Origin: Gammaproteobacteria bacterium
GTDB taxonomy: Bacteria; Pseudomonadota; Gammaproteobacteria; Eutrophobiales; Eutrophobiaceae
Reading direction: 5' to 3'
DNA: 64,000 nt
Assembly (NCBI GenBank): GCA_965205405.1
Contig: OZ242169.1
Location: 2,480,091-2,544,090, forward strand
The notes below the pieces were generated by a model that had not been told where the DNA came from, made no database searches, and saw nothing but the letters and a program-made list of their open reading frames with translations. A program made the position numbers and the translations under genes. Of this stretch, positions 17,308 to 54,853 are shown in pieces. Positions within the stretch are counted from its first letter, which is position 1. Every line of letters starts with the position of its first letter.

Positions 17308-17337
17308 AACTTAATTCCTTAAATTCTATAAGCAAAT

Positions 17338-23716: not shown

Positions 23717-23748
23717 CAGTAGACTTGTTCGTTATTGAGTGGTTTAAC

Positions 23749-30897: not shown

Positions 30898-31047
30898 GGT
30901 ATAAGGATAGCTTACAACCTGTATCCGTGTCAATCCAATGATTGTATCATGTAACTGACACGTAAAGCTCGCCGATACTGGGATCGCGGTACACCGGCAC
31001 TTATGAATACCTTGCAAATCAGGAATTAAAATCCTAAAATACAAGGT

Positions 31048-35981: not shown

Positions 35982-35991
35982 GGAGCACGCT

Positions 35992-36762
35992 ATGAAAAGT
36001 CGGGCGATGGATATCAACTGTGACATGGGCGAAAGTTATGGCAGCTGGGTGATGGGCAATGATGAGGCCCTTATGTCTCGTATCACCACGGCTAACGCCG
36101 CCTGTGGATTCCATGCAGGCGATCCTGTTACGATGCTAAAGACCGTCAGGTTGGCAAAACAGAACGGTGTTCAGATAGGAGCTCACCCGGGATTACCTGA
36201 TTTGCTGGGTTTTGGTCGTCGGCCAATGCCTCTGACGCCTGAAGAAGCCTATACCTATGTGTTGTACCAAACCGGAGCGCTGCAGGCCACCCTCAAAGCC
36301 AATGATATGACTTTGCACCATATCAAACCTCATGGCGCCTTCTACTCAATCCTGAAAACAGAACATGATTTGGCAGAGGCTGTGGCACAAGCAATATCGG
36401 AATTGTGTGAGGTTCCGATGCTCTACTGGCCTGCAGCACCCACCGACGCAGCCCTGCCTGCCGCAGCGAAAAAACGTGCTATCCGGGTAGTGGGTGAAAT
36501 CTATCCGGATCTTTCGTATGCGGCTGATGGAGCTCTGATTATTCAGCGTGAAATGCATGGGGCTGACCTTGATTTTGTTGCCGGCCAGGTCAGACGTTTC
36601 ATTGAGTCTTCGGTTGTAGAAGCGGTAGACGGCTCTCTCATTGAGCTTGAAGCTGACAGTATCTGTGTCCACGGTGATGGCGCCAATGCCGCGGAAGTGG
36701 CTGACACTATACGGTCTGTGCTCACCGAAAGCGGTTGCGAAATTGCACCGGTAATGGAATAA
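35992..36762 (+). CDS. LamB/YcsF-family protein (PxpA, 5-oxoprolinase subunit A family)
   Basis: Start at the ATG at 35992 (MKSRAMDINCDMGESYGSW ... ACGFHAGDP), the canonical LamB/YcsF N-terminus. The longer ORF in the track is an upstream read-through. Confidence 0.8.
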   Translation: MKSRAMDINCDMGESYGSWVMGNDEALMSRITTANAACGFHAGDPVTMLKTVRLAKQNGVQIGAHPGLPDLLGFGRRPMPLTPEEAYTYVLYQTGALQATLKANDMTLHHIKPHGAFYSILKTEHDLAEAVAQAISELCEVPMLYWPAAPTDAALPAAAKKRAIRVVGEIYPDLSYAADGALIIQREMHGADLDFVAGQVRRFIESSVVEAVDGSLIELEADSICVHGDGANAAEVADTIRSVLTESGCEIAPVME

Positions 36763-36883: not shown

Positions 36884-39799
36884 TCAATTTGGGGGTAAAA
36901 TAGCGAGCTTTAGCCGGATGTAATAAAACCTGCCCAGGTAGTCGTAGATTGACGAGGTGTTGAGCGCAACGTCAGGCACGTAGGGTGGGGACTTATCAGT
37001 GAGGTTATCCACACCAAATGTGATGTTTATGATATTGCCGCGGTAGCTTCCGTAGGTGTCGAAGTAGTTGACCGCGTCAACGGTCTTGTGAATATTATCG
37101 AATTCAATCGTATCGAACACGTCCATGGCATCCAGGTAGCGCCAGGAACCGCCGATGGTCCAGTTATTACGGCTGAACGCCAGGGACAGGTTGGAGCGCC
37201 ATTCCGGGTAGCCGGCCCAATCGGAGACGTTGCCTGCCACCATATCGGTGCGGTCGCTGACCGCGCCGGAGTCGCTTGTCTCGACGTACTCGTTGAGCCA
37301 GTTGACGTTGCCGCTGAAACTCACATCGCCAAAGTCAGTCGACAAAATGTAGCTGGTGCTGAGATCAATACCGGATGTTTCCAGACGGGCCAGGTTTTCA
37401 TTGAGGAGGTCGAAGCGGGTAATCGTGCCGGACGAACCGCGACTGATGCGGTCGCATTCCGGCGCTGCCAGGTTCGGTGTGGTATAGCAGGTCAGGATCA
37501 CATTAACCGGGTCGGGGGTATTGATAGCGTCGTCCACTTGCACGTCGTAATAGTCGATACTGAGTGATAAGTTGTCGATTTCATCCGGCGTCCAGACAAG
37601 CCCGGCGGAGAAGCTGTCGGATGTTTCCGGTTTGAGTTCGGAGTTGCCGCCTGCCGAAATTTTCAGCTGTGAGGCATTTTGCACGTAGTTTGCGGGGATA
37701 CCCTGGCTGGCGCAGTTTTCTCGTACCGTAGCATTATCCTGATAGAGGTCTGCAGCAGTATTACAGGGGTCCGCCACAGTCGGAAACGTATCCGAGGTGC
37801 CGCCAAAGGATTCCAGGATATTCGGCGCCCGGAAACCGGTGGCAATGACCCCGCGGAAATGCAGGTCGTTACCGGGCGCCCAGTGTAAGGCAAGCTTGTA
37901 GGTCGCTTCCGAACCGACGGTATTGTAGTCGGAATAGCGCACTGCGGCTTCCAGGGACAACTCCTGTGCGAAGCGCCGGTCAGCGATAAGCGGTGCATGA
38001 AATTCTGCGAAGAACTCCCACACCGAAAAATCACCTTCAGTCGGCTCGGCAAAATTACCGCCACTGTGCCCGGCCTGAACAGTAGCCGAATGTGTTACAT
38101 CGCCCGATTCACGACGCCACTCCAGACCGGCCGCAACGTCAATCGTACCGCCGGGTAAAGTCCATAACTCGCCTGTGACCGCCCCGGCCAGGTGCCACAT
38201 TTCATATCTTGTTGCTTCTTCATCGTCGAACAGGATGTAATCGATTTCCGCTTGAGACTTGTCGCCCCGGCCGAATATATCCAGCGTCGGATTGCCCCGG
38301 GCGTCTTTGGGGCAGGCAGTGTCCCGGTTGCAGGCAGCCGGGAGCAAAGCCGTCTGCAACTTCGCAACGTTGACCTGATTTTGGGTAACTTCATCCAGGG
38401 TTGAACGACCGTAGGTGAACCAGGCATCGTATTCCCATCCATCCACGAGAAACGGCAGGTCGCCGCGTAAACCCACGGTGGTTTTCATAGTCTCGCTGTT
38501 GTACCTTAAATGGCGGTTGCCAAGGTCCAGCGCGCGCCACCACATTTGGAATTGAGTCGCATCGGGGTCTACCGCGGCCCGGATTACAGGTATGGCGTCA
38601 GCCGGCACATGCGGGTTGGTAAAGGGGACCTGGAGCAGGTCAGTGAACCGCCCCAGCGCATCGGCAATGGGCAAAGGCGTATATTCCTGCGCGCCCTTGC
38701 GGTGTGTCCCCAGCAGTTCGTAATACAGGGTGGCGTTATCCAGGTTCAACTCGCCGATGATACTGCTGTTTACGACACGGGACGTATTCAGCAGGGAAAG
38801 TCCCTGTTCAATGTCGCTGTAATTAAAGCGGTGCCCGGTATCGAGTATGGACTGCAGACTGCCGTCTCCTGCCGAACCGTTCAGGCCGCTCAAACCAAAG
38901 GTATCGTAGAGCTGAAAACTGGCGCCGGTAGTCGGATCCGGCTTGAAGATAATGCCTGCGTCCGGCTGTCTGCCCTGCGGCGGTACGCCGCTGCCCATCA
39001 AAGTCAGAATAGTCCCGTCATCGTCCAGTTGTCCCAGGATTGGAATTTTTGACCAGCTGCGCTGCTGGAAATCCACCCTGCCGGTATCGACGATGGTGGC
39101 CGCCAGGGTCACGTGACCGCGTTCTCCGGCCAAACCGGCGATGATACCGGCATTATAGGAGTCGCCGCCCGGATTATCCGGCATACCGGCCCCGGCGCTA
39201 AGTTCTATACCCTCGAAGCGTCTGGTTTTGACGTTGATAACGCCGGCTACTGCGTCTGATCCGTAGATGGCGGAAGCCCCGTCTGCCAGCACTTCAATGC
39301 TGTCAATCATGGTGATGGGAAACGACTGCAAATCAACCCCCAGCCCGAGCGAATCACGGATGGTATGCACCATGCGCCGGCCGTTCAGCAACACCAGTGT
39401 CCGTTCGGGGGTCAGTTGATGAATGCCGGAAAAATGCGCTCCCCGCCCGGCGTCGGCCTTGTTCCGGGAACTCCCTTGCAGGCCGATTGAGGGAAGCTTC
39501 AGGAGCATATCCTGCACGCTGTAATTGGGGGTAAGTGTGATATCCGCGCCGTCGATTACCGACATTGGACCCACATGGTCGGCCGGTTCCCGGCCGATAC
39601 GAGAGCCGGTGACGATAATTTCCTCCAGTTCTTCAGTCTGTCCCTGGGCAGGAGACAGACCGGCTGACAGCGCGTAGATTGAGGCTGATACAAATGTTAA
39701 CAGGCATAATTTCCCCCATTGCCAGCTCAATGTCGCGAGATCAGGGGGACGGCATATATAGCTCACTAATCTAAACTCCGCAAACAGGTAAGTTATCAC
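36884..39799 (-). CDS. TonB-dependent receptor (large, about 950 aa; start codon uncertain, the ORF-track start is a GTG)
   Basis: Signal peptide (LCLLTFVSASIYALSAGLSPAQG) then plug (EELEEIIVTGSRIG...). Long barrel with a C-terminal ...YYIRLKLAI-like terminus. Confidence 0.8.
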   Translation of the reverse strand: MITYLFAEFRLVSYICRPPDLATLSWQWGKLCLLTFVSASIYALSAGLSPAQGQTEELEEIIVTGSRIGREPADHVGPMSVIDGADITLTPNYSVQDMLLKLPSIGLQGSSRNKADAGRGAHFSGIHQLTPERTLVLLNGRRMVHTIRDSLGLGVDLQSFPITMIDSIEVLADGASAIYGSDAVAGVINVKTRRFEGIELSAGAGMPDNPGGDSYNAGIIAGLAGERGHVTLAATIVDTGRVDFQQRSWSKIPILGQLDDDGTILTLMGSGVPPQGRQPDAGIIFKPDPTTGASFQLYDTFGLSGLNGSAGDGSLQSILDTGHRFNYSDIEQGLSLLNTSRVVNSSIIGELNLDNATLYYELLGTHRKGAQEYTPLPIADALGRFTDLLQVPFTNPHVPADAIPVIRAAVDPDATQFQMWWRALDLGNRHLRYNSETMKTTVGLRGDLPFLVDGWEYDAWFTYGRSTLDEVTQNQVNVAKLQTALLPAACNRDTACPKDARGNPTLDIFGRGDKSQAEIDYILFDDEEATRYEMWHLAGAVTGELWTLPGGTIDVAAGLEWRRESGDVTHSATVQAGHSGGNFAEPTEGDFSVWEFFAEFHAPLIADRRFAQELSLEAAVRYSDYNTVGSEATYKLALHWAPGNDLHFRGVIATGFRAPNILESFGGTSDTFPTVADPCNTAADLYQDNATVRENCASQGIPANYVQNASQLKISAGGNSELKPETSDSFSAGLVWTPDEIDNLSLSIDYYDVQVDDAINTPDPVNVILTCYTTPNLAAPECDRISRGSSGTITRFDLLNENLARLETSGIDLSTSYILSTDFGDVSFSGNVNWLNEYVETSDSGAVSDRTDMVAGNVSDWAGYPEWRSNLSLAFSRNNWTIGGSWRYLDAMDVFDTIEFDNIHKTVDAVNYFDTYGSYRGNIINITFGVDNLTDKSPPYVPDVALNTSSIYDYLGRFYYIRLKLAILPPN

Positions 39800-40379
39800 T
39801 TGTTCTTATTTGAACGTTAGAGTATATAATCTCAGTATAATCACCGATTCATCTCATTGCTATATCCGCGCTACGACTCACTATATGCTCAATATTATTC
39901 AGATAAACGCAGTCGAACAGCAAGTATGGGGCAGGCCGGATAAGTTGGCGAGGTCAGGCATGGGGCTGCCCGGTCAGGTTATGGCGCAGGAGGTACGGCA
40001 TGGGGAGACAGTTCTGCCCGCACCACCGCTCTGCCCATGGTGGCCGCAGGTATCCTGGGGGAGGTCATTGCGCGGCAATTCCGGGACAGCATAGTAACGT
40101 GTATCCTTACTCTTTTAGGTAGTATTACCAATATTATATTTTATCCCTACTACTCAAAAGAATACAAAACTACTAATCTAAGTGGTTTTACGGAGCTTCT
40201 TATCTCCTATCCTTTAATAGAGTCACCTGCAAGCGGCCAGTTGCAAACTCGGTTTCTGTGCCAGGGATGACCCTCGGGTCATTAAGACAGCCGCAAAACC
40301 CATTTTGTAGGAACGGCCGATGCAACTTAAGATTTGAATCAGCAAAAGCTCTTCATGAACTATAATATCAACGAGTAAT

Positions 40380-43130
40380 ATGGTTACATTGAAGAATGAA
40401 ATTGACCTTGATGGTCTCTATCAGATTTCAACCGATCTGAACACCACTCCTTTTACCAACAGTAAGTACCACCCGCCAAGTCAGAAGGTCCATCTGATAG
40501 AGCGGGTGGCCCTTAACCAGATTCTCAAAGAAATACAAAGCAGGAAGTTGATTGTTTTACAGGCGCCCGCCGGTTACGGTAAGAGTACCTTATTATCGCA
40601 GTGGCACACGAAACTGATTTCGGATAATTTCAGGGTAGGCTGGTTGTCTCTGGATGATGATGACAATAATACCCTCACTTTATTGAGTTATTTACTGGGT
40701 ATTATTTCATCCATGGGAGCCCCGTCCGATCCGGAAGAAATTACCAGTGGTAAAACTATCCATGAACTGTCAACTCGTGACCTGTTTGTCCTGCTGATTC
40801 ATGAAATTGAAAAATTTAATGAATCGGTTTTCCTCATTCTGGATAATTTTGAGATGCTGGATAAAGAGGTCGTTAATGCAGTAATCAGGCCGTTATTACA
40901 ATTTACACCTGATCATTTCCATTTAATCATCGCATCTCGATTTCAGCCGGACCTGGAGCTGTCACGTTTACGTACACAGGGGCTGCTCCACCAGATTAAA
41001 GCAACTGATTTGCGATTTAGCCTGTACGAAATCGAGGAATTTTTTCAGGGTAAATTATCAAAATACGAAGAAAGGACTATTGCGGAACGAACCCAGTGCT
41101 GGCCTGTCGCTGTTCAGTTGGCGCGGTTCTGGCGTGATAGTGACGGAGGTGGCATTCTGAAAAAATTTTCCGGCGTTCCCGAAGAAATCGCCGAGTATTT
41201 ATCTGAGCAGGTACTGTTACAGCTACCTGAGCCGGTGCAGGAATTTTTATTGGAGACGTCTGTACTGAACGTTCTGACTGAAGTGGATATAAAAGGAATA
41301 TTTATTGAACGGGATTATTGGTCAATGCTGGGTGATTTGATCTCCCTTGAGCCTTTTTTATATCTCCATGACACTGACCCCAAGAGTTATCACTTGAATC
41401 CGATTTTCCGTGATTATTTACGTATGGAATTCAATGAAAGGAGCCCGGAAAAAAAACAGGCCGTCCATCATTCAGCTGCTATGTGGTTTGCGGCAAATAA
41501 TCAACTCTCGACGGCTGTCCGCCACGCAAAAGAGTCCCATGATAAGGAACTGGCCGGTCGAATCGTACAGGATGCGGGCGGATTGAGTATATGGATCAGT
41601 CAAGGGCTGTTACTTATAACTACCGTGCACCGTCTTCTTGATGAGAAGGTAATTGAAGATTTTCCCAGGTTGAAGTTGTTACGATCATTGATATTGCTGA
41701 AAGAGGGAAAGTTAATTGAAGCCAGACGTTTATATGAACAGGTCAGGAAGGAGAGCAACCATTTTTCAACGGATAAAAAAAGCCAGGATATCAGTGCACT
41801 CAAATTAGATGCCCTGGTTGTTGACTCAACTCTGCTGGTTAACGAATGCAGGCTTGCCACGGCTGATTATGTTTCTGATTATGAAGCGGTAGTTTCGGAT
41901 ATGGCAACTAAAGATGAACTTTTACATGGTAATCTCATAACTCTACTGTGTCTGTCACATCATCAGCGGGGCGAGTTTGCGAAAGGTTTGGATTATGCGG
42001 ATAGAGCTATTGCCGTCTATGGAAGCAATGGCATAGTTCATGGGCAAATATATAATTATTTACATAAGGGAGTGATTCAGTTCGCCCAGGGTAATTCAAG
42101 GAAAACGCTTCATTGTTATAAACAGGCCCTTTCGATTGCCCGTACATATTACGGTACCGATAAAAGCAAGATTGCGGTTACTTTCCCATTGATAGCAGAA
42201 GTGAATTATGAATTGAACAACCTGGATACGGCCGGTTCGCACTTACACAACATTATTAAAAAATTACATGCAACCGAAGGTTGGTTTGATATTTATGCGG
42301 CGGGTTATATCACTACAGCACAATTAATCCTGAATGATGCCGGTCTGGATGCGGCAATGGAGTTTCTGGATAGCGTGGAAAGTGAGATTGAAGCATGCGG
42401 CATAGTTGGGCTGGTAAAGATAATCCTGGCTACACGAATAAGCCTGTTATCCCGTCATGGATTATTCAGTGAAGCTGAATACATTCTTAGATACTCAAAT
42501 CTGACAATTGACGCTTATATCAGGCCCGACCCTGATGTAACGACATGGCGAGAGCGGGAAGCCGTTATCAAGGCAATCGCTGAATTATCTATTCCACGCG
42601 GTAAAAATCACAAACTATTTCAGGATCTATTGCAGATATCCAATAACTTGCTGGCTACCATGCATATTCGCAGTTTTATTCATATTGGCATACTCACTGC
42701 GCTGGCTGGCATGTCATTGGGCGAGAAAGAACAAACATGGAAATTATTGTTGCAGGTTATGGATAAATCCCTCCATTCGGGATTTATCCGGTTTTTTATC
42801 GATAGAGGAGACCCGGCAAAACAAATGCTTGAAATGTTTGAAAAAGAATGCGGCCCTGTAATATCCGGGCGGACAGCAGAGCATTGTCATGACATTATTG
42901 AGCAGTTTGACATCTCCAGGCAGGAAAAACAGAATTTTTCATTGACAAAGCGCGAAGCCGAGTTGCTCGTGGAACTGAAAAGCGGGAAACCGGATAAACT
43001 TATTGCCAGATCGCTCAGAGTCAGCCCTAATACAGTCAGATATCATTTAAAAAAATTATACAGGAAACTCGGTGCTGTCAATCGAACTGAAGCAGTTCAT
43101 ATCGCGCGGGAATCTTCCCTGATTGAATAG
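40380..43130 (+). CDS. Large ATP-binding LuxR-family (LAL / MalT-like) transcriptional regulator
   Basis: 916 aa. N-terminal P-loop NTPase (VLQAPAGYGKSTLLSQW). Long helical (TPR-like) middle region. C-terminal LuxR/GerE HTH (LTKREAELLVELKSGKPDKLIARSLRVSPNTVRYHLKKLYRKLG). Confidence 0.8.
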   Translation: MVTLKNEIDLDGLYQISTDLNTTPFTNSKYHPPSQKVHLIERVALNQILKEIQSRKLIVLQAPAGYGKSTLLSQWHTKLISDNFRVGWLSLDDDDNNTLTLLSYLLGIISSMGAPSDPEEITSGKTIHELSTRDLFVLLIHEIEKFNESVFLILDNFEMLDKEVVNAVIRPLLQFTPDHFHLIIASRFQPDLELSRLRTQGLLHQIKATDLRFSLYEIEEFFQGKLSKYEERTIAERTQCWPVAVQLARFWRDSDGGGILKKFSGVPEEIAEYLSEQVLLQLPEPVQEFLLETSVLNVLTEVDIKGIFIERDYWSMLGDLISLEPFLYLHDTDPKSYHLNPIFRDYLRMEFNERSPEKKQAVHHSAAMWFAANNQLSTAVRHAKESHDKELAGRIVQDAGGLSIWISQGLLLITTVHRLLDEKVIEDFPRLKLLRSLILLKEGKLIEARRLYEQVRKESNHFSTDKKSQDISALKLDALVVDSTLLVNECRLATADYVSDYEAVVSDMATKDELLHGNLITLLCLSHHQRGEFAKGLDYADRAIAVYGSNGIVHGQIYNYLHKGVIQFAQGNSRKTLHCYKQALSIARTYYGTDKSKIAVTFPLIAEVNYELNNLDTAGSHLHNIIKKLHATEGWFDIYAAGYITTAQLILNDAGLDAAMEFLDSVESEIEACGIVGLVKIILATRISLLSRHGLFSEAEYILRYSNLTIDAYIRPDPDVTTWREREAVIKAIAELSIPRGKNHKLFQDLLQISNNLLATMHIRSFIHIGILTALAGMSLGEKEQTWKLLLQVMDKSLHSGFIRFFIDRGDPAKQMLEMFEKECGPVISGRTAEHCHDIIEQFDISRQEKQNFSLTKREAELLVELKSGKPDKLIARSLRVSPNTVRYHLKKLYRKLGAVNRTEAVHIARESSLIE

Positions 43131-43310
43131 CGTCATGCTTTTCGTCCGGCGCCGATTCCCCCGGGACCGATGTCTGTTTCGCCTTGCCCCCGGAGGTTTA
43201 TATACCTACTGATTCAGGTAGTCTTTTCTTAAAATAGAAACTCACCCCCTACTCAAGAAACTTCCAAACTACTTTTTGCAGTAATTCAACAGGGGTCGTT
43301 CATCCCGTAT

Positions 43311-43330
43311 CCTTTTATCTAGATAAAAGG
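43311..43330. promoter_or_regulatory. Perfect 20-bp palindrome CCTTTTATCTAGATAAAAGG about 70 bp upstream of the hydantoinase-like gene; candidate operator
   Basis: Exact dyad symmetry seen in the sequence, in the LuxR-regulator / hydantoinase-like intergenic region. Confidence 0.45.
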
Positions 43331-43401
43331 TTTCTTTATGAAGCCGCACGGTTACCTGAGAAGAAGAACCGGAAGATGCGATATTGAAGCGGAGTAAATA
43401 A

Positions 43402-44964
43402 ATGCGACTTGGTGTGGATGTCGGAGGTACAAATACTGATGCCGTCTTGATGGATGGCGCACTGGTACAAAGCTGGCATAAAAGTTTCACTACGGAAGAC
43501 ATCAGCACGGGGATATTTTCGGCCATCAGGAGTGTTCTGACAAAAGCCGATATATCCGCCGATAGCATCGAAGGTGTGATGATCGGGACAACTCATTTTG
43601 CCAACGCAATCATAGCGCGGGAGGGATTGGAAAATGTCGGCATCATCAGGATTGCGTTGCCTGCTACTCGTGGTTTACCGCCACTGACTGATTGGCCCGA
43701 TGATTTGAAAGTGCTTGTAGGCGGCCATGCCTATCTGATCCGGGGAGGCTATCAATTTGATGGGCGCTTGAATAGCAAGCTTGACGAAGCCGGGTTGTGT
43801 GATGCCGTTCATGACATTAAAAAGCGAAGGTTGAGATCAGTGGCAATATCTTCACTATTCTCTCCTGTTAACAGTGATATGGAGTTTCGTGCTGAGGCAA
43901 TAATAAAAAATGAGTTGCCTGACGTATCAGTCACTTTGTCTCATCGAATCGGCAGACTTGGTCTGCTTGAACGTGAAAACGCAACCATCATGAATGCCAG
44001 CCTGACGGGTCTCTCCCGGAAAGTGGTCAATTCAATTCGAACAGCCTTGCTTGATCTGAATATTACCGCCCCATTTTACATAAGCCAGAACGACGGCACT
44101 TTAATGGACGCGGAGGCTGTGGAGAAATATCCGGTACTAACCATCTTATCCGGCCCGACTAACAGTATGCGCGGCGCGGCATATTTGTCGGGCCAGAAAA
44201 ATGCAGTAGTAGCGGATATCGGTGGGACCACCACTGAAATAGGCATGCTGGTAAATGGATTCCCCAGGGAATCTTCGTTAACCGTCGATGTGGGCAAGGT
44301 ACGCACCAACTTTCGTATGCCGGATATTCTTGTACTCGGGTTGGGCGGCGGCAGCCTGGTCAGAAACACCATGCCTGTTAGGGTAGGTCCGGATTCTGTC
44401 GGTTATCGGATAACCAGAGACGCCCTTGTCTTCGGTGGTAATGAATTGACTGCAACTGATATAGCAGTCGCAGCCGGCCATACATTAATCGGTAATCCCG
44501 AATATGTTTCAGGACTGGAAAAAGGGTTTGTCAATGCAGCCATAAAGGAAATAAGACTTGTGGTCGAAACCGGTATTGACAGGATCAAAACATCTCCCGA
44601 ACCAATTCCACTGGTATTGGTAGGAGGAGGTTCTGTTTTGGCGCCGCGCAAGTTATCAGGAGTATCTGAAATTATTATTCCTGAGCATGCGCCCGTTGCC
44701 AATGCGGTTGGAGCGTCAATTGCGCAAATTGGTGGAGAGATAGAGCACGTCTATCTTTACTCACAGCTTGGCCGCGAAGAAGCCTTATCACAAGCGCGTT
44801 CAGGTGCGATTCAAAATGCAATAAGCATGGGAGCGGACCCTTCAACTACAAACGTTGTGGACTTGGAAGAAATACCGCTTGCCTATGTGCCCGGAGGCGC
44901 TGTCAAGGTACGCGCGAAAGCGACCGGGATACTTAATCTGGTAAATCCTGATAGACCAGTATAA
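43402..44964 (+). CDS. Hydantoinase-A/oxoprolinase-family (ASKHA-fold) protein, HyuA-like, 520 aa
   Basis: N-terminal MRLGVDVGGTNTDAVLMDG, typical of the Hydant_A_N domain. Size and Gly-rich motifs (GGGS, GPTNS) fit the short HyuA-like proteins that pair with DUF917. Confidence 0.65.
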   Translation: MRLGVDVGGTNTDAVLMDGALVQSWHKSFTTEDISTGIFSAIRSVLTKADISADSIEGVMIGTTHFANAIIAREGLENVGIIRIALPATRGLPPLTDWPDDLKVLVGGHAYLIRGGYQFDGRLNSKLDEAGLCDAVHDIKKRRLRSVAISSLFSPVNSDMEFRAEAIIKNELPDVSVTLSHRIGRLGLLERENATIMNASLTGLSRKVVNSIRTALLDLNITAPFYISQNDGTLMDAEAVEKYPVLTILSGPTNSMRGAAYLSGQKNAVVADIGGTTTEIGMLVNGFPRESSLTVDVGKVRTNFRMPDILVLGLGGGSLVRNTMPVRVGPDSVGYRITRDALVFGGNELTATDIAVAAGHTLIGNPEYVSGLEKGFVNAAIKEIRLVVETGIDRIKTSPEPIPLVLVGGGSVLAPRKLSGVSEIIIPEHAPVANAVGASIAQIGGEIEHVYLYSQLGREEALSQARSGAIQNAISMGADPSTTNVVDLEEIPLAYVPGGAVKVRAKATGILNLVNPDRPV

Positions 44965-44982
44965 ACACTTAGGAGATGTGAA

Positions 44983-47094
44983 ATGAAGATGACTAAGATA
45001 ATTCAACCTTTAAGCACTCTGTTGATTTCTTCAGTTCTGTTTACTGCTTCACTCGGGACTCAGTATTTATTTGCGGCTGATGGCGTTGATGTAACTGCCC
45101 TGGAAGAAATAGTGGTAATAGCACGTAAACGGCAAGAAAACCTGCAGGAGGTCCCGGAAGCTATAACGGCCTTCAGCGAACGCAGGCTGGAACTGGCCAA
45201 AGTAGAGAATTTACGTGATTTCGTAGACCTGACGCCGAACCTGATGATACGTGAAACTTTCCGCTCAAATGAGAGTTTTCTTACCCTGCGCGGTCTGTCA
45301 AGTGCGCAGGGAGGGTTACCACCGGTGAGTTTTATTGTGGATGGTGTGCAGTTGGGTTCCAATGATTTTATAAACCAGGATATTCTGGACGTGGAACGGA
45401 TTGAGATACTGAGAGGCCCACAAGGCGCGCTTTATGGACAAGGCGCGATAGCAGGCGCTATTGTAGTAACGACAAAAGCGCCGAGTAACGACCCAGAATT
45501 CCATATAAAGGGCTCCTATGGCAAGGGTGACAGCTATCGGGTGGCAGTTTCCGGGTCTGCGCCGATTGTCGATGACCAACTGTTTTTGCGTATCTCGGGC
45601 TATTACCGTGACAGCGATGGCCTCATCGATAACATACGCGGTGAAGATATAGATTTCAGCGAGGAAGGTTCCATCCGAGCGCGTCTGCAATATGAAGGAG
45701 ACAACCTGCGCGCCAGTCTGCGCGGGTCCTATACGGAAGGTGATGGGAATTGTTGTATGCAGGACCGCTTGCCCAGAGACGCCAACCGACAGATTTCGGC
45801 GGGCGTGGATATTGACGATGTGGATAACCCTGGACCAAGTAGTGATCTTTTAGGCACCAGTGGTACCAGTTTTCGTGATGTATCACTGAAGCTGGATTAC
45901 GATCTGGCCAATTTCACCTTTACCTCCATAACGGGTTACGCGGAAGTGCGCCAGTCTGTTTTTGGGGATGCCGATTTTGCGCCGGTACCATTTGTCAAAC
46001 AGGATCTGGGTTTCAATACTGACGTATTCAATCAGGAAATACGCCTGGCATCGAGTGATGACAGCCGTTTACAATGGATTGTTGGCGGGTTTTACCAGGA
46101 CCGCCAGGAAAGACAACCGGTTTTTGTCGGGGCGGTGACACCGGGGGCCGGCCTGCCTGTTCCGGATGTCATTTTAGATCTTGATAACGAAATCAACAGT
46201 GAATCATGGGCAATCTTTGGACAGGTAAGCTATTACCTTACCGATAAACTGGAGGGTTTGTTTGCCTTACGCTATGACGAAGATGATCAGGATACGGTTG
46301 ATAAAAATAATCCACCCACGTTCAAGGAAGCCTCATTTGATGAATTGCAACCGAAAGCGCAATTATCCTACCGCTGGACCGATGACGTACTGACTTTCTT
46401 CAGTTATTCAACCGGGTTCAGAACAGGGGGGTTTACGCAAAACAGCAAGTTTGGTAACGAAACGACGGATAATTTCGAGCTTGGCTTCAAGGGAACCTTC
46501 CTGGATAGACGTCTGATCGTAAATGCCTCTGTATTTCACGTTGATTATGCCAATCAACAATTATCGTTTGTTGTGTTCGACAATAATATAGCCCGGCGAG
46601 GGGTAGTGAATATACCTGCAACTGATATTGATGGTCTGGAACTGGAAATTCAGGCATTACCGTTTGATGGCCTGAATGTATCTATTGGTGTCGGAATTTC
46701 CGATTCGGTCATAAAAGAGATCACCTCGTTGGATGCTGCGCTCGGTGACGTTTCTGGCGCATCTGGTAATCGGTCACCTTTTGTTCCATCTTTCACCTTT
46801 AATGGGTCCCTGACATATACGTATCCGATATATGACCAAATTGAACTGGTGCTTCACACCGACTACCGGCGCAGGGGTAATTACTACAGCGACCTCAATA
46901 ATGAGATTCAAACTGCTACCAGGGATTTCATCGATGGAAGAATAGCGCTGGAGGCCCGAAATTGGTCTTTGGCGTTATGGGGCAGGAATTTGACCGACAG
47001 CCGGCATGCCACGCGCGTATCAGCGACGGGCTCTGCGTTGCGCAACCAGAACCAGCCACGGTCTTACGGGGTTGAACTCAGTTACCGTTTTTGA
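44983..47094 (+). CDS. TonB-dependent receptor
   Basis: 703 aa. Signal peptide, plug (EEIVVIARKRQENLQEVPEAITA), C-terminal ...ELSYRF. Confidence 0.85.
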   Translation: MKMTKIIQPLSTLLISSVLFTASLGTQYLFAADGVDVTALEEIVVIARKRQENLQEVPEAITAFSERRLELAKVENLRDFVDLTPNLMIRETFRSNESFLTLRGLSSAQGGLPPVSFIVDGVQLGSNDFINQDILDVERIEILRGPQGALYGQGAIAGAIVVTTKAPSNDPEFHIKGSYGKGDSYRVAVSGSAPIVDDQLFLRISGYYRDSDGLIDNIRGEDIDFSEEGSIRARLQYEGDNLRASLRGSYTEGDGNCCMQDRLPRDANRQISAGVDIDDVDNPGPSSDLLGTSGTSFRDVSLKLDYDLANFTFTSITGYAEVRQSVFGDADFAPVPFVKQDLGFNTDVFNQEIRLASSDDSRLQWIVGGFYQDRQERQPVFVGAVTPGAGLPVPDVILDLDNEINSESWAIFGQVSYYLTDKLEGLFALRYDEDDQDTVDKNNPPTFKEASFDELQPKAQLSYRWTDDVLTFFSYSTGFRTGGFTQNSKFGNETTDNFELGFKGTFLDRRLIVNASVFHVDYANQQLSFVVFDNNIARRGVVNIPATDIDGLELEIQALPFDGLNVSIGVGISDSVIKEITSLDAALGDVSGASGNRSPFVPSFTFNGSLTYTYPIYDQIELVLHTDYRRRGNYYSDLNNEIQTATRDFIDGRIALEARNWSLALWGRNLTDSRHATRVSATGSALRNQNQPRSYGVELSYRF

Positions 47095-47116
47095 TATGAC
47101 TCTTCCGTTGTTTTGT

Positions 47117-47148
47117 GGGCTGATCCTCCTGGATCAGCTTTCTTTTTA
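47117..47148 (+). terminator. Rho-independent terminator after the TonB-dependent receptor gene
   Basis: GCTGATCC-TCCT-GGATCAGC is a perfect 8-bp stem, followed by TTTCTTTTTAT. Confidence 0.7.
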
Positions 47149-47266
47149 TGTTTTATTTATGAAAGTTATTACGCTTTGCGATCCGGTTATCGCCCGTTTG
47201 GCAATCGGTAATTTGAGTTACCCTATTATTCGGATGCCAATTTAATAAATACAGAACAATAGTCAA

Positions 47267-48562
47267 ATGTCCCGTTTGCGAACATTGACACAGGACTACA
47301 ACAGGGTACCGGTTCCTGATGAAAAGACTGTGAGCGCCTGGCACATCGCCTTGATTAAAATAGGTATTGTCATTGCTCTTCCCGCTTTTTTTACTGGCGC
47401 TGAAATCGGGGTAGCTATGGGCCTGGTGGATGCTTGTCTGGTCATAATCGCAGCTGCGCTTATCCTGGCGTTGCTTGCTGCGTTGACCGGTACAGTAGGA
47501 GCGAGTTCACGTTTGTCAACATCAATGATTCTACAATTTTCCTTCGGAATACATGGCGCAAAATTCGTTAATTTCATACTTGCCACTACTTTGCTGGGTT
47601 GGTTTGGAGTGACAACCGCCTTATTCGGGCATACATTAAATGATCTTGTCATTTCCACTTTAGATATCCGGTTAGTACCGACGTTATATATGTTTCTGGG
47701 CGGATTATTGATGATTGTGACGACAGTTTTCGGTTTCAAAGCCCTGCAAAAACTCTCCAATTTTGTGGTTCCGTTATTACTCATCGGAATTGTTGTCGTG
47801 TCTTATATATCCACTCAACAAGGTGAATTCTATCCACTGATGTTAACAACCGGTGATGGCAGTTTATCTATCGGCCTTGGTATCTCAGCATTGGTAGGAG
47901 GAATGGTAGTAGGGGTCACTATTTTTCCTGATCTGACCCGTTATGCCCGTAGTTCTGTTCACGGGCGAGCCGCAGCAGGATTAAGTTATGGATTAGGGGT
48001 TCCTTTTGTACTCATCACGGTTGCTATCCCGAGTATTGTCACAGGCGAAAAGGATCTATTGCTGATCATGCTGTCTTTGGGCTTGGGGATTACCTCATTA
48101 TTGGTGCTTATCATCACTGCGTGGACAACCAATGCAGGCAATTTATATTCGTCTTCTCTGGTTTTGGCAACGATATTCCAGGCAGTAGAAAAATGGAAAA
48201 TCTGTATTGCGGCGGGACTGATCGGAACTGTCTTTGCCGTATCAGGTATCACTGAATATTTTCTATCTTTCCTGATCCTGCTCGGGGTCTGTATTCCGCC
48301 CATAGTAGGGATTTATTTGGCCGATTTTTATTTCATCAGGAATAAACAGTATGATTTATTGAAACTGAAACAGGTCCCGGCTATCAATATTGAGGCATTT
48401 ATCGCCTGGTTACTTGGTATCAGCGTTGCGTCAATGACCTCAAGGGATATTATTTCTCTCACGACAATTCCTTCCTGCGACGCAGTTTTGACAGCTTTTT
48501 CTGTCTATATCCTGCAAAAAAAATTTTCTTTCGGGAGCCCGTGGCGCCTTTACAGGAAGTAA
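47267..48562 (+). CDS. NCS1-family nucleobase-type permease, CodB (cytosine permease)-like
   Basis: 431 aa, about 12 TM segments. Colinear resemblance to CodB (SFGIHGAKF ... LLGWFGVTTALFG). Confidence 0.75.
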   Translation: MSRLRTLTQDYNRVPVPDEKTVSAWHIALIKIGIVIALPAFFTGAEIGVAMGLVDACLVIIAAALILALLAALTGTVGASSRLSTSMILQFSFGIHGAKFVNFILATTLLGWFGVTTALFGHTLNDLVISTLDIRLVPTLYMFLGGLLMIVTTVFGFKALQKLSNFVVPLLLIGIVVVSYISTQQGEFYPLMLTTGDGSLSIGLGISALVGGMVVGVTIFPDLTRYARSSVHGRAAAGLSYGLGVPFVLITVAIPSIVTGEKDLLLIMLSLGLGITSLLVLIITAWTTNAGNLYSSSLVLATIFQAVEKWKICIAAGLIGTVFAVSGITEYFLSFLILLGVCIPPIVGIYLADFYFIRNKQYDLLKLKQVPAINIEAFIAWLLGISVASMTSRDIISLTTIPSCDAVLTAFSVYILQKKFSFGSPWRLYRK

Positions 48563-48592
48563 TATCTGGTGTGATTTATTTATAACAAGTAT

Positions 48593-49681
48593 TTGAATAT
48601 TGTGAAGATTTCATCTGAAGATGTTGAAGATATTGCACTCGGCGCATCATTGCTCGGTACGGGTGGCGGGGGTGACCCCTATATAGGACGCCTGATAACC
48701 CAGTCAGCCCTGTCAGAATACGGCCCTCCAACAGTTTTAGACATGGATGAGCTGGATGATGATGCTGTAGTTTATTCGATAGCAGGTTATGGCGCCCCTA
48801 CGGTCCAGATAGAAAAGCTGATTAATGGTGATGAAGTTGAATTCGCATTAACTAAACTCGAAGATTTCACAGGACATAAAGCCGATGCTTTATTCCCTGC
48901 TGAAATCGGCGGTGGCAATTCACTACTTCCTGTCATGCTGGCGGCTCGTCGCGGGATTTCTGTAATCAACGGTGACGGTATGGGCCGCGCTTTTCCTGAA
49001 TTACAGATGAACTGCTTGAGTATAATGGGAATCAAAGCCACACCCCTGGTCGTAGTCGATGAGCATCTGAATTACGTAATTATTGAAGCCGGCGATGATA
49101 AAATCGCTGAAGATTTAACCCGTTCCCTGGCCATAAGAATGGGGTTACGAGTGTTTATTGCGTGTTTTCCTATGACAGGGCGGGATGTAAAGAAAGCTGC
49201 AATACCCGGGACATTGGGGATAGCGCTTGAGATTGGCCGCACTCTCCGGGAAGGACGCAGAACAGGTGATGTAATAACCCGTCTGTTTAATTATCTTACC
49301 TCATCGAATTATTACAACAAACCCCAGGTACTTTTTATCGGCAAAATAGTGGATGTGTATCGGGAAACTTCCCAGGGTTTTTCCAGTGGTTCATGTAAAT
49401 TAGTGGATTTAAATGACACTGGCAGGACTGCAGTCATTCGCTTCCAGAATGAAAATCTGGTAGTGAAAGTTGCTGACAAGACCGCGGCCATTGTTCCCGA
49501 TCTGATTTGTATTTTAGACAGTGAGACCGGGGAACCAATCTTGACGCCTAACCTCAGATATGGGCAGAGAGTCATAGTGATTGGGCTGAATGCGCCACCT
49601 CAGCTGCGTACTTCAGATGCGTTGTCGATATTCGGTCCGCAGTGTTTCGGAATTGACGAACCGTTTATACCGTTACCTTAA
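48593..49681 (+). CDS. DUF917-family protein (Pfam PF06032-type; usual partner of HyuA-like hydantoinase-family proteins)
   Basis: 362 aa. TTG/GTG start region. N-terminus ...SSEDVEDIALGASLLGTGGGGDPYIGRL, characteristic of DUF917. Confidence 0.65.
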   Translation: MNIVKISSEDVEDIALGASLLGTGGGGDPYIGRLITQSALSEYGPPTVLDMDELDDDAVVYSIAGYGAPTVQIEKLINGDEVEFALTKLEDFTGHKADALFPAEIGGGNSLLPVMLAARRGISVINGDGMGRAFPELQMNCLSIMGIKATPLVVVDEHLNYVIIEAGDDKIAEDLTRSLAIRMGLRVFIACFPMTGRDVKKAAIPGTLGIALEIGRTLREGRRTGDVITRLFNYLTSSNYYNKPQVLFIGKIVDVYRETSQGFSSGSCKLVDLNDTGRTAVIRFQNENLVVKVADKTAAIVPDLICILDSETGEPILTPNLRYGQRVIVIGLNAPPQLRTSDALSIFGPQCFGIDEPFIPLP

Positions 49682-50808: not shown

Positions 50809-50893
50809 CTTCCGTTGGAAATTTGGGGTCAGAGTAAAAATATGGTCAACTTGGTAGGTGTTGCCGGTTTATTCGTGAGTATTTTTACTCTGA
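50809..50893. repeat. Family-A hairpin repeat copy 3, between the convergent PQQ-dehydrogenase and MoaD-like genes
   Basis: Arms AAATTTGGGGTCAGAGTAAAAATAT / GTATTTTTACTCTGACCCCAAATAT around a 35-bp unique spacer. Followed by the family-B half-site AAATCTGTCCCC at 50906-50917. Confidence 0.8.
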
Positions 50894-50925
50894 CCCCAAA
50901 TATCCAAATCTGTCCCCGCCCGGCA

Positions 50926-51189
50926 CTATCCCCCGCCGATAGCGGGGACGAAAAAGACCTCGTTGTTTTCTTCCAGGCGTTGCAGGGGCCCCAGGTGGCT
51001 GATTTGTCCGTTGACTGCAACGGCAATACCGGGTTTTAACCTGTCACCGTCCATGAGCGCATCTTTTAATCCGGGATAGCTCTCATCCAGCGCGACGACC
51101 AGCCTCCTGACGGTGCGGCCTTCCATCTCGACGGTTTCCTTGCCGCCGGTATATGTCTGCATGGCTTTTGGGATCCAGACCGTCGGCAT
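50926..51189 (-). CDS. MoaD/ThiS-family ubiquitin-like sulfur-carrier-type protein ending in Gly-Gly
   Basis: About 87 aa from MPTVWIPKAMQTYTGG ... VNGQ ... EVFFVPAIGGG. The beta-grasp MoaD pattern and C-terminal GG match. Its start overlaps the stop of the Mo-hydroxylase large subunit by about 8 nt. Confidence 0.6.
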   Translation of the reverse strand: MPTVWIPKAMQTYTGGKETVEMEGRTVRRLVVALDESYPGLKDALMDGDRLKPGIAVAVNGQISHLGPLQRLEENNEVFFVPAIGGG

Positions 51190-51196
51190 AACGTCA

Positions 51197-53482
51197 TCAG
51201 GCGGCTTTGGCGGGTTTAGCGGCTTTGATGGCCGCACAGACCTTGTGGGGCGCCATCGGCATGGAGTTCATCCGTACGCCGACTGCGTCATGGATGGCGT
51301 TGGCGATGGCCGCAGGCGGCGGGGCGATGGAAATTTCACCGCAACCGCGCACGCCGAAAGGATGGGCGGGATTGGGCGATTCCAGGATCACAGTTTCCAG
51401 CATCGGCACATCCAGCGAGGTAGGCAGACGGTAGTCAAGCAGACTGGCATTTTTCAGGTGTCCTTCTTCATCGTAGAAATACTCTTCATTTAAAGCCATG
51501 CCTATCCCCTGTACCGCGGCGCCCTGCATCTGGCCTTCCACGTAATCCGGATGGACGGCCTTGCCCACGTCCTGGAATATCGTATACCGGAGAATGTCAA
51601 CCTTGCCGGTCTCGGGGTCCACTTCTACGTCCACCAGGTGTGCTGCAGAGTTTGGAATAAAGCTCTGGGGGCTCCCGGTCTTGTGGTAGCTGATAGGGCC
51701 GCCGGTCTCAAACATTCGCGCCGCCAGTTCATTAAATGTCAGGGTCTGTCCTGGTTCTGCCTTGTTACTGAACACACCTTGGTCGACGCTCACCTGGTCG
51801 GCATCGGTCTCCCACAGCAGGGCGGCCCGTTCACACATTTGCCTGAGTATCTCCTGCGCTACCTCACAGACGACTGCACCGGTGCCGTAGGTGGTCCGAC
51901 TGCCTACCGAAGGCAGTGAAAAACCGATGGACTGGGTGTCGGAGACAAGCGGGGACACCTGTTCAACGCCTATGCCCAGCATCTCCGCGGCCTGCATGGC
52001 CAGCGAGATCCGGGTGCCGCTCAAGTCGGGGCTGGCCGTGGTCATTGTGACGGAGCCATCCGGGTTGACCTGAAGGCGCGCGCTGGAGGTTTCGCCCAGA
52101 TTGAACCACAGGCTGTAGGCAAGGCCTCGTCCCTGGTTCGGCCCGTCCAGAGGCGCCTGGTAATGGGGGTGCGCCCTGACTGTGTCCATCAGTTTTTCCG
52201 TGTCTATGGGCGCCAGCGGGAATCCCGGCACCAGCCGGTCTCCGGTCCTGGTAAGATTTTGCATGCGGAAATCGATGGGGTCCATGTCCAGTTCAAAAGC
52301 CAGCTCATCTATCATCTGCTCCACCGCAAACAGGGCCTGGGGCGCGCCCGGGGCGCGATAGGGACGCATGGTGGGTTTGTTTACGATGACATCGAAGCCG
52401 TTTATCAGGATATTGGGTATGTTATAGCGGGACGTGGAAGACAGGATGCCGAGAAACAGGGGGCCACCGGCATAAGCGCCTGCTTCGTAGGCCATGTGCA
52501 GGTCGGCCGCCGTGATGGTGCCGTCCTGTTTAACGCCGAATTTCAGTTTGATATAAGTGCCGGAACTCGGCCCGGTTGCGCGGAAAACCTCATCACGGCG
52601 CATGGCGATCTTGACCGGGCACTGGGACTTTTTCGAGAGCATGGCTGCGACCGGGTCGATATAAACGCGCTCTTTCCCGCCAAAGCCACCGCCAATCTCC
52701 AGCGGTACGACGTTAACATTACTCATGGGCACCTGGATGATATCCGCCAGGTGATCGCGCAAACCAAACTGCCCCTGGGTCGCGGTCCACACGGTCACAT
52801 AGTCATTGTTATCCCAGTTTACCGTGGTGACGTGGCTTTCAATGTAACCCTGGTGAATGGTCTCCGCCGTGTATTCCCTCTCCAGGACGAGGTCGGCCTC
52901 GGTAAAGCCCTGTTCGATATCGCCATTGCCGAGTTGCAGGCGGGTGGCATTGGGTAGAAATTTCTCCGTGGGCGCGATAAAGCTCCCCGGGTGGTAATTT
53001 TCATGGATGACCGGGGCATCATCGGCCATGGCCGCGCGCACGTTCATGACCGGCGCCAACAGTTCATAGTCCACTTCAATCAGGTTGACGGCTTGTTCTG
53101 CGACGTGGGGGCTGTCTGCCGCTACCGCCGCCAGGGCGTGACCGTCGTAGAGAACCTTGTCTTTCGCCATGCAGTTCTCCGACATCTCGCGCATGTTGAT
53201 CATCCCGGCCATGCCCTGGCTGACCATTTCGTGTATAACCGGAGGGAAATCAGCGCCGGTCACGACTGCGCGCACACCGGGCAGGGCCTGCGCTGCGCGG
53301 GTGTCGATGGACTTTATACGCGCATGAGCATGGGGACTGCGAAGAATTTTCCCGTGCAGCATATTGGGCGGATGAAAATCATCGGCAAACAGAGCGCGTC
53401 CTGTTACCTTGTCCAATCCATCCGGGCGCATCGGTGTGGTACCGATGACGTTAAAATTGTTGTTCACAACTGCGCTGTTCAT
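51197..53482 (-). CDS. Molybdopterin-binding large subunit of a xanthine-dehydrogenase/CoxL-family hydroxylase
   Basis: About 762 aa from the ATG at 53482 (RBS GGAGG). N-terminus MNSAVVNNNFNVIGTTPMRPDGLDKVTGRALFADD ... KILRSPHAHARI. Aldehyde oxidase/XDH a/b-hammerhead and Mo-binding domains. Confidence 0.85.
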   Translation of the reverse strand: MNSAVVNNNFNVIGTTPMRPDGLDKVTGRALFADDFHPPNMLHGKILRSPHAHARIKSIDTRAAQALPGVRAVVTGADFPPVIHEMVSQGMAGMINMREMSENCMAKDKVLYDGHALAAVAADSPHVAEQAVNLIEVDYELLAPVMNVRAAMADDAPVIHENYHPGSFIAPTEKFLPNATRLQLGNGDIEQGFTEADLVLEREYTAETIHQGYIESHVTTVNWDNNDYVTVWTATQGQFGLRDHLADIIQVPMSNVNVVPLEIGGGFGGKERVYIDPVAAMLSKKSQCPVKIAMRRDEVFRATGPSSGTYIKLKFGVKQDGTITAADLHMAYEAGAYAGGPLFLGILSSTSRYNIPNILINGFDVIVNKPTMRPYRAPGAPQALFAVEQMIDELAFELDMDPIDFRMQNLTRTGDRLVPGFPLAPIDTEKLMDTVRAHPHYQAPLDGPNQGRGLAYSLWFNLGETSSARLQVNPDGSVTMTTASPDLSGTRISLAMQAAEMLGIGVEQVSPLVSDTQSIGFSLPSVGSRTTYGTGAVVCEVAQEILRQMCERAALLWETDADQVSVDQGVFSNKAEPGQTLTFNELAARMFETGGPISYHKTGSPQSFIPNSAAHLVDVEVDPETGKVDILRYTIFQDVGKAVHPDYVEGQMQGAAVQGIGMALNEEYFYDEEGHLKNASLLDYRLPTSLDVPMLETVILESPNPAHPFGVRGCGEISIAPPPAAIANAIHDAVGVRMNSMPMAPHKVCAAIKAAKPAKAA

Positions 53483-53484
53483 TT

Positions 53485-54839: not shown

Positions 54840-54853
54840 GGGTAAGTTTCTTG

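Follow-up and report, generated by a model that had tools for sequence, protein, structure and literature searches.

We analysed a 64-kb stretch of a gammaproteobacterial genome (contig OZ242169.1 of assembly GCA_965205405.1; the whole stretch is called the window, and positions are window coordinates) and found that five co-directional genes within it form a functional unit: a LAL/MalT-type regulator, a short HyuA-like ASKHA ATPase, a TonB-dependent receptor (TBDR), an NCS1 carrier and a protein of the former DUF917 family (Table 1). We propose that the HyuA-like and DUF917 proteins act as two halves of one enzyme, and we hold the chances to be about even that the whole is a substrate-inducible scavenging cassette that takes up a chiral cyclic amide or ureide and opens its ring at the expense of ATP. 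An uptake-plus-enzyme locus without a characterised function had been predicted here from the sequence; that description is borne out, and all five open reading frames (ORFs) are present exactly where they had been placed.

The ATPase carries the signature of the hydantoinase-A family to which it had been assigned, with Pfam matches to Hydant_A_N (115 bits, cut-off 25) and Hydantoinase_A (113 bits, cut-off 23) and intact ATP motifs (DVGGTNTD, DIGGTTTE and LVGGGS). It aligns only to approximately residues 1–410 of the 690-aa canonical HyuA and has no Hydant_A_C match, and its top NCBIfam match, caprolactamase alpha, reaches 111 bits against a cut-off of 1000. For a wider view we compared 80 genomic loci that encode DUF917 relatives with 42–60% identity, counting partners that lie no more than 6 kb from the DUF917 gene. 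Many contigs are truncated, and the partner counts are lower bounds; neighbour statistics were taken from tblastn, and simple ORF calling gave spurious antisense ORFs in high-GC actinobacterial loci. A tblastn search with a genuine HyuB query gave no match in the window and identified HyuB at 2 of the 80 loci only, where it adjoins a full-length HyuA of its own. The short form of the ATPase and the absence of HyuB from the window argue against a generic HyuA or oxoprolinase subunit whose partner is encoded elsewhere. DUF917, on the other hand, is a constant companion: the two genes are neighbours in 76 of the 80 loci (33 of 35 in Pseudomonadota, 29 of 29 in Actinomycetota and 14 of 16 in other groups), which confirms the predicted widespread duo. 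All 10 of the long DUF917 proteins examined are HyuA-like-to-DUF917 fusions, some of them from the protists Ancoracysta, Anaeramoeba and Pelomyxa and annotated merely as 'hydantoinase'. It is this fusion in protists that argues for two halves of one enzyme. The pair was found in Proteobacteria, Actinobacteria, Firmicutes, Chloroflexi and haloarchaea, in addition to the protist fusions, and a scan of 1.84 billion cluster representatives (50%-identity clusters) returned approximately 3,780 DUF917 clusters at E ≤ 1e-3.

In many genomes, one HyuA-like gene is accompanied by two or three DUF917 paralogues (L014, L018, L020, L030 and other actinobacterial loci, as well as L093 in Haloferax and L090 in Aminobacter), and an extra DUF917 gene was counted at 8 of the 35 pseudomonadotal loci, 26 of the 29 actinomycetotal loci and 9 of the 16 others. 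Most paralogues retain the family motifs, and the third actinobacterial paralogue is degenerate (DADLSGRGLP, EMENEY). Several DUF917 specificity subunits could thus share one ATPase.

Two characterised enzyme systems come close to the pair. It resembles the HyuA/HyuB lactamases (OplA/OplB, CapA/CapB and N-methylhydantoin amidohydrolase) in having a HyuA-type ASKHA ATPase with intact ATP motifs and a separate second protein, and its fusion in eukaryotes recalls eukaryotic oxoprolinase, in which HyuA and HyuB are fused (PMC6061476). Unlike those enzymes, it has an ATPase truncated to 520 aa, which scores about a tenth of the curated cut-offs for the HyuA/HyuB equivalogs, and a partner of unrelated fold instead of Hydantoinase_B. 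The Pfam domains of this partner, S-Me-THD_N and S-Me-THD_C (formerly DUF917), define a family with a two-domain fold. Conserved DUF917 motifs are GTGGGGDP, E-GG-NS, DGMGRAFPE and FQNEN. The original prediction named a link between DUF917 and thiohydantoin desulfuration. At the level of the family the link stands, given the Pfam name and the NCBIfam equivalogs; for this protein as an orthologue of the desulfurases it does not, as the two thiohydantoin and S-methyl-thiohydantoin desulfurase equivalogs (NF058529 and NF058532) give only 79.5 bits against a cut-off of 440 and 92.5 bits against 450. The window protein shares with thiohydantoin desulfurases the two-domain fold family and likely the same chemistry, a hydrolysis that displaces a group from an activated, nitrogen-flanked ring carbon, but it is a distant paralogue that is nearly always coupled to an ATPase and lies outside any ergothioneine-pathway context.

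The other partners vary with lineage. In Pseudomonadota, the 35 loci include 21 with a TBDR, 21 with a LAL regulator, 16 with a racemase and 10 with an NCS1 carrier; the 29 loci of Actinomycetota have NCS1 in 26, a racemase in 1 and neither TBDR nor LAL in any, and the remaining 16 loci have NCS1 in 1 and none of the other three. TBDR and NCS1 are thus recurrent partners, and the type of importer follows the cell envelope: NCS1 alone in Actinobacteria and on plasmids of lactic acid bacteria, and a TBDR with or without NCS1 in Proteobacteria. Plasmids of Rhizobium and Aminobacter (Rhizobiales) encode a Pot-like ABC importer, and Haloferax and several other phyla a peptide-type (SBP_bac_5) ABC importer. 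The module is carried on plasmids of food-fermentation lactobacilli, and on a plasmid of L. plantarum it consists entirely of PucR-NCS1-DUF917-HyuA, with no downstream enzyme; PucR-family regulators accompany it in Actinobacteria as well as in lactic acid bacteria. M19 dipeptidases and nitroreductase-family genes were each found at 3 of the 80 loci, and no other downstream enzyme recurs across them. The cluster-linked PF01177 racemase is a member of the hydantoin/allantoin branch: it scores 111 bits to 3qvj and 108 bits to 5lfd, glutamate racemases give only 16–18 bits, and the alignment covers both motifs of the catalytic cysteines.

L081–L084 and L088 (80–100% protein identity) carry these five genes in the same order, with different flanks. 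The order is also found in a metagenome-assembled genome (MAG) of Sphingomonadales (L001), in a gammaproteobacterial MAG (L010) and in L085, which extends it across Alpha- and Gammaproteobacteria, and the cultured isolate Govanella unica has LAL-HyuA-TBDR-NCS1-racemase-DUF917, with a racemase of the hydantoin/allantoin type. Cultured carriers of the enzyme pair also include R. leguminosarum (pRL1) and L. plantarum (on a plasmid). The closest named relatives of the cassette are Alphaproteobacteria; GuaB places the host no further than a lineage of uncultured gammaproteobacterial MAGs. In composition, the cassette (GC 0.457; GC at third codon positions, GC3, 0.42–0.49) stands apart from the immediately flanking genes (GC3 0.66–0.70). 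It had been described as a low-GC block in a high-GC background; the low-GC cassette is real, but the high GC applies to the immediate flanks only, the window as a whole having 50.5% GC. In one sister genome, the HyuA-like protein is 100% identical and GuaB only 95%. Because of the differing flanks, the GC3 contrast, the disparity between HyuA-like and GuaB and the insertion sequences (IS) found at the cassette in sister strains, we conclude that the cassette is mobile and laterally acquired, and its transfer was probably recent.

We also looked at how the cassette may be controlled. The regulator has Pfam matches to a STAND NTPase, TPR_MalT and GerE, with Walker A (APAGYGKST) and Walker B (VFLILDNFE) motifs, in agreement with its prediction as a MalT-like, ATP-dependent LuxR regulator, and a WHD_MalT domain is precomputed in the regulator of a 97% relative (L081). 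At 274 bits against the NCBIfam MalT cut-off of 537, it is not MalT itself. The two promoter regions, one ahead of the regulator gene and one ahead of the operon, run collinear for approximately 110 bp at an offset of 3099 nt, and each contains four boxes with the consensus (C/T)TACT at position x, GGTAG at x+11, CTAC(T/C) at x+43 and CTACT at x+63, followed by TATCCT. This four-box pattern occurs at two sites in the window (40107 and 43206) and in 0 of 300 simulated sequences. Both promoters in L082 and L083 have exactly this spacing, the footprint at the operon promoter is kept in L081, L082 and L083, and the more distant L085, L010 and L001 have related CCYACYC boxes and inverted repeats 5′ of HyuA. 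We read the pattern as a putative LAL box array, which would imply autoregulation together with activation of the operon.

The 20-bp perfect palindrome that had been noted ahead of the operon, CCTTTTATCTAGATAAAAGG, was confirmed, and it is the sole perfect palindrome of at least 20 bp in the window, where 0.055 are expected by chance. As a conserved operator it was rejected, since footprinting found it degenerate in L082 and deleted in L083, and the conserved element at this promoter is the four-box array. In the sister strain L088, an IS is inserted at the CTAG centre of the palindrome, with CTAG duplication, and parts the box array from the operon. A further IS in a sister strain lies ahead of the regulator gene and has taken out three of its four promoter boxes, so that only box 4 is left. 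The sister-strain elements, which are of the DDE_Tnp_1 type, were observed at the regions L088 8576–10000, L081 1632–1763 and L088 5693–5824.

The inner-membrane carrier belongs to NCS1 (Pfam Transp_cyt_pur, 86.5 bits against a cut-off of 23.5). Its top NCBIfam match is cytosine permease (CodB, NF008241; 220 bits against a cut-off of 326), followed by CytX (103 bits), and among solved structures CodB (7qoa) is best at 119 bits, with Mhp1 at only 42 bits. We aligned the carrier to 7qoa and mapped the published pocket contacts (PMC9379551). Like CodB and Mhp1, which have the NCS1/LeuT fold, it keeps the stacking tryptophan (CodB Trp108, Trp112 here), Asn280 (Asn289), the Na+-site pair Thr278/Thr279 (Thr287/Thr288) and Arg216/Tyr285 (R225/Y294). 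Unlike CodB, it has Leu109 for Gln105, Met213 for Phe204 and Ala37 for Phe33, so that only Trp108 (1/3) is retained of the cytosine-contacting side chains Gln105, Trp108 and Phe204. The label 'CodB-like NCS1 permease' therefore holds for the family and the CodB branch and fails for a cytosine carrier. Cluster-linked NCS1s of Proteobacteria and Actinobacteria have in common a leucine or other hydrophobic residue at Gln105 and a small residue at Phe33, and this signature, shared at only ~26% identity, argues for a common, non-cytosine and probably bulkier substrate. Compared with the pocket in which CodB holds cytosine, the pocket here is predicted to be larger and more hydrophobic, and the window carrier is probably Na+-coupled. 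In the NCS1 partners at L019, L030, L042 and other, mostly actinobacterial, loci, the Thr-Thr of the Na+ site is replaced by Lys-Ile, Lys-Met or Lys-Leu; the replacement suggests Na+-independent and possibly H+-coupled transport, with the lysine in place of the cation.

The outer-membrane receptor has a plug (68 bits) and a barrel (130 bits) in Pfam, a signal peptide and a TonB-box-like EEIVVIA. It is 33–59% identical to the TBDRs of 12 other HyuA/DUF917 clusters, with which it forms a coherent subfamily (328–793 bits); the remaining cluster TBDRs are no closer to it than an unrelated TBDR of the same window (195 bits). Cluster TBDRs thus come from at least two lineages, and recruitment happened more than once. 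TonB-dependent import alongside an NCS1 carrier had been taken to imply a scarce substrate. The TBDR by itself does not imply this, as the 64 kb contain three TBDRs (18795–21176, 36884–39799 and 44983–47094) and the enzyme module elsewhere uses NCS1 alone or ABC importers. TBDR-centred nutrient-uptake loci of Proteobacteria, such as those for sucrose and maltodextrin in Xanthomonas and Caulobacter, combine a TBDR with an inner-membrane carrier, a cytoplasmic enzyme and a dedicated regulator. The cassette resembles such uptake loci in its MalT/LAL-class activator, outer-membrane TBDR, secondary carrier and catabolic enzyme, and it differs from them in that its cargo would not be a carbohydrate. 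We know of no characterised TBDR locus with NCS1 as the inner-membrane partner.

Several other explanations of the cassette have to be weighed. If DUF917 were a thiohydantoin or S-methyl-thiohydantoin desulfurase of the ergothioneine pathway, the cassette would import and desulfurise thiohydantoin-type intermediates, and the S-Me-THD_N/C domains and the fact that the two desulfurase equivalogs are its sole NCBIfam matches fit this idea. The scores, however, are far below the equivalog cut-offs, and our Pfam survey identified no ergothionase (HAL/PAL-type), urocanase-type (thiourocanate) hydratase, hydantoinase, hydantoin-propionate hydrolase or carbamoylase in the window, nor does any recur in the 80 loci. 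Furthermore, ATP is not required when a thione or thioether is the leaving group, whereas members of this subfamily almost always have an ATPase as partner or fused to them, and we consider an ergothioneine role distinctly unlikely. Salvage of cytosine, another pyrimidine or a vitamin precursor, with a CodB/CytX-type nucleobase carrier and a pair that modifies the imported pyrimidine, is about as unlikely. It would account for the cytosine permease and CytX matches, for CodB as the closest structure and for the PucR-family regulators in Actinobacteria and lactic acid bacteria. Against these stand the sub-threshold CodB score and the pocket itself: of the two residues whose mutation abolishes cytosine transport, Trp108 is kept and Gln105 is Leu, Phe204 and Phe33 are also replaced, and the non-cytosine signature recurs in all cluster-linked NCS1s. 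Nor does the cassette contain a cytosine deaminase, uracil phosphoribosyltransferase or thiamine gene, an Rfam scan of the whole locus returned nothing credible and no riboswitch, and the racemase partner implies a chiral substrate. No known pyrimidine genes lie alongside the operon.

A metallophore or siderophore system, in which a metal chelate would enter through the TBDR and be released or recycled by the cytoplasmic enzymes, is suggested by the receptor, whose strongest match is the siderophore-receptor subfamily TIGR01783 and whose closest solved relative, in the plug domain, is the yersiniabactin/pesticin receptor FyuA. That match (182.5 bits) is below the cut-off of 223.5 bits, Gram-positives, archaea and protists have the enzyme module with no TBDR at all, the TBDRs that do accompany it come from different lineages, and the regulator is a ligand-activated LAL rather than a Fur or extracytoplasmic function sigma factor system; this reading is highly improbable. 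To a chance juxtaposition of transporter genes and two enzymes in an island, with no functional unit at all, we give next to no credence. The terminator does split the block, and HyuA-like and DUF917 genes are non-adjacent here, unlike in most genomes, but the order is identical in L001, L010, L085 and L081–L084 across Alpha- and Gammaproteobacteria, partner frequencies are high, operator boxes are common to both promoters and the terminator is itself conserved.

In the scavenging cassette that we propose instead, the LAL regulator, with ATP and inducer bound, would bind the four-box CTACT-type array before its own gene and before the operon and switch both on. The TBDR would move the substrate over the outer membrane and NCS1 would then carry it into the cytoplasm, where the HyuA-like protein would spend ATP on phosphorylating a stable cyclic amide or ureide in its lactim form, like subunit A of oxoprolinase or caprolactamase. 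Two-subunit ATP-dependent lactamases divide the work: the lactim is phosphorylated by subunit A, and its hydrolysis requires subunit B (PMC6061476). DUF917, as a coupling half with a fold of its own in HyuB's place, would hydrolyse the activated C(=N)-X centre, and the opened product would feed into general metabolism with no other dedicated enzyme. Formally, this is the chemistry of stand-alone DUF917 proteins, whose thiohydantoin substrates are activated intrinsically (X being SH or SCH3). In formal terms, an O-phospho-lactim corresponds to an S-methyl-isothiourea, an analogy which would explain why stand-alone DUF917 is ATP-free and this subfamily is joined to an ATPase.

We infer the chemistry, the catabolic direction and the class of substrate from these comparisons. 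The most probable substrate is a ring of five or six members that is neutral and chiral and has a C-alpha H between a ring nitrogen and a ring carbonyl, because the racemase partner points to a stereocentre with an acidic hydrogen next to both, and the classes that fit best are 5-substituted hydantoin-type ureides and 2,5-diketopiperazines (DKPs). A hydantoin-type ureide is a tentative first choice; another lactam is unlikely, and a pyrimidine-like ring somewhat more so. A possibility that we would put behind the hydantoins is that the pair is the missing cyclodipeptide (DKP) hydrolase, an ATP-driven opener of bis-lactams that would convert peptidase-resistant cyclic dipeptides to ordinary dipeptides. 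With the same reserve, the cassette would then be a dedicated outer- plus inner-membrane scavenging route for cyclic dipeptides. Transporter plus a single enzyme would suffice for this purpose, some versions of the module have SBP_bac_5 importers or M19 dipeptidases, the racemases fit a C-alpha H between ring nitrogen and ring carbonyl, and lactobacilli carry the module on plasmids. In addition, neighbourhoods of non-biosynthetic cyclodipeptide oxidases are enriched in DUF917, PF01177 racemases, peptide ABC transporters and peptidases, with DUF917 called uncharacterised (Nat Commun 2024, PMC11055893). The loci examined here resemble those neighbourhoods in their racemase, SBP_bac_5 importers, M19 dipeptidases and nitroreductase-family genes; they differ in that the window has no cyclodipeptide-oxidase gene and that the M19 and nitroreductase partners are rare. 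The enzymes that open DKPs were still referred to as 'unknown enzymes' in the literature consulted (PMC3852281). For hydantoins there is a lead only: the hydantoin-ring fungicide iprodione induces a Hydant_A_N gene, racemases and CodB, with no mention of DUF917 (PMC12927932).

A number of points weigh against this proposal. DUF917 shows no detectable relation to HyuB, and its taking the place of HyuB is for this reason an analogy. In the window, two transporter genes and a terminator separate the HyuA-like gene from DUF917, which is odd for subunits of one enzyme. Phosphorylation by the short HyuA-like form would be a property carried over from oxoprolinase and caprolactamase. The window and its close relatives have no racemase gene, and no carbamoylase recurs among the neighbours in the 80 loci, though one would be expected were the substrate a hydantoin. 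A salvage or biosynthetic direction, such as ATP-driven amination of a lactam, is also possible. Finally, the searchable literature contains no functional study of this DUF917 subfamily and none that assigns a function to the HyuA-like/DUF917 pair; DUF917 is mentioned only as uncharacterised.

Each protein of the cassette is a member of a known superfamily, and databases annotate them generically. What our analysis adds, on the basis of sequence comparison, is evidence that the pair is one HyuB-less enzyme, the rejection of a thiohydantoin or a cytosine function, the recurrence of racemase, LAL and TBDR as partners, the putative four-box operator array at both promoters, an NCS1 pocket signature that extends across phyla, and evidence for recent transfer. 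The pair represents a large, ancient enzyme family. With DUF917 in HyuB's place, it would define a second architecture of ATP-dependent ring-opening amidohydrolases, and it would connect thiohydantoin desulfuration, the one reaction known for DUF917, with a general mechanism, the hydrolysis of an activated C(=N)-X centre. If DKPs or natural hydantoins are the substrate, the pair would fill a gap in the microbial recycling of very stable cyclic amides in soil, sea and food. Since each module brings its own regulator, promoter and transporters, substrate discovery is directly testable.

Table 1. Genes and control elements of the cassette (window coordinates).
Feature	Position	Strand	Details
Regulator promoter/operator	40107–40213	+	TTACT 40107, GGTAG 40118, CTACT 40150, CTACT 40170, TATCCT 40208–40213
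LAL/MalT-type regulator	40380–43130	+	916 aa
Operon promoter/operator	43206–43313	+	CTACT 43206, GGTAG 43217, CTACT 43249, CTACT 43269, TATCCT 43308–43313
20-bp perfect palindrome CCTTTTATCTAGATAAAAGG	43311–43330		overlaps putative -10/start region
Short HyuA-like ASKHA ATPase	43402–44964	+	520 aa
TonB-dependent receptor	44983–47094	+	703 aa
Intrinsic terminator/attenuator (hairpin + T-run)	47117–47150 (hairpin 47117–47140)	+	terminator scan; between TBDR and NCS1 genes
Inverted repeat GGTAATTTGAGTTACC	47207–47222		upstream of NCS1 gene; GGTAAT...GTTACC; conserved in L081–L083
NCS1 carrier	47267–48562	+	431 aa
DUF917/S-Me-THD-like protein	48593–49681	+	362 aa

Within the cassette, the real start of the DUF917 gene is probably the GTG at 48602, which gives 359 aa and matches relatives. 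The predicted intrinsic terminator between receptor and permease was recovered as a hairpin followed by a T-run, and its stem is preserved by compensatory changes in L082 and L083. Downstream of it, GTAAT...(A/G)TTAC of the GGTAATTTGAGTTACC repeat is kept in L081, L082 and L083 amid an otherwise diverged spacer; the repeat may be a second operator or control site, or an internal promoter element after the conserved terminator.

A PQQ (pyrroloquinoline quinone)-type dehydrogenase and Mo-hydroxylase genes had been noted immediately downstream. They are present, the former as a GSDH-type, PQQ-like gene, but a partnership with the cassette did not hold up: the GSDH-like gene, tried as a cassette member, resembles the flanks in GC, does not occur in L082 or L083 and has no match in the 80 loci. 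The GSDH-type and Mo-hydroxylase/NicX-like genes are flank-type in composition and missing from L082 and L083, which makes them neighbours rather than members. The latter comprise, at 50926–55936, a ThiS-like gene, Mo-hydroxylase large, small and FAD subunits and then a 360-aa protein, with a second FAD-subunit gene at 60742–61626. In L081, the 97% relative, the precomputed annotation labels the 360-aa protein NicX (PF26233); the Pfam scan here gave it no match. These genes are probably an N-heterocycle hydroxylation cluster outside the cassette. Just 3′ of the GSDH-like gene, at 50822–50900, lies a perfect 21-nt inverted repeat (TTTGGGGTCAGAGTAAAAATA / TATTTTTACTCTGACCCCAAA) with its arms 37 nt apart. 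At the left junction of the low-GC cassette, three GCATGGGG-containing repeats with ~34 nt spacing occupy a GC-richer spacer (39921–40010), and these may be a junction or a remnant of the REP (repetitive extragenic palindromic) type.

Further upstream, 32723–36762 contains a biotin-carboxylase-like ORF, which at 364 aa looks short, and after it PxpB-, PxpC- and PxpA-like genes (CT_C_D, CT_A_B and LamB_YcsF). The Pxp-like genes represent a second, unrelated ATP-dependent lactamase-type system, of the prokaryotic 5-oxoprolinase family, just upstream of the cassette; their composition is unlike that of the cassette, and they do not accompany it in the relatives examined. A cluster at 16276–24915 with three VanA-type Rieske oxygenase genes, two MFS transporters and a TBDR (18795–21176) looks like an uptake locus for aromatic O-demethylation. 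Two DUF4143/AAA_14 ATPase genes are arranged divergently, head to head, at 29716–31044 (-) and 31048–32217 (+). Finally, guaA (GMP synthase, 27962–29535) is split into overlapping ORFs (27962–28981 and 28951–29535) at an A-rich run at ~28930–28950, either by a real frameshift or by a homopolymer error of the long-read assembly.

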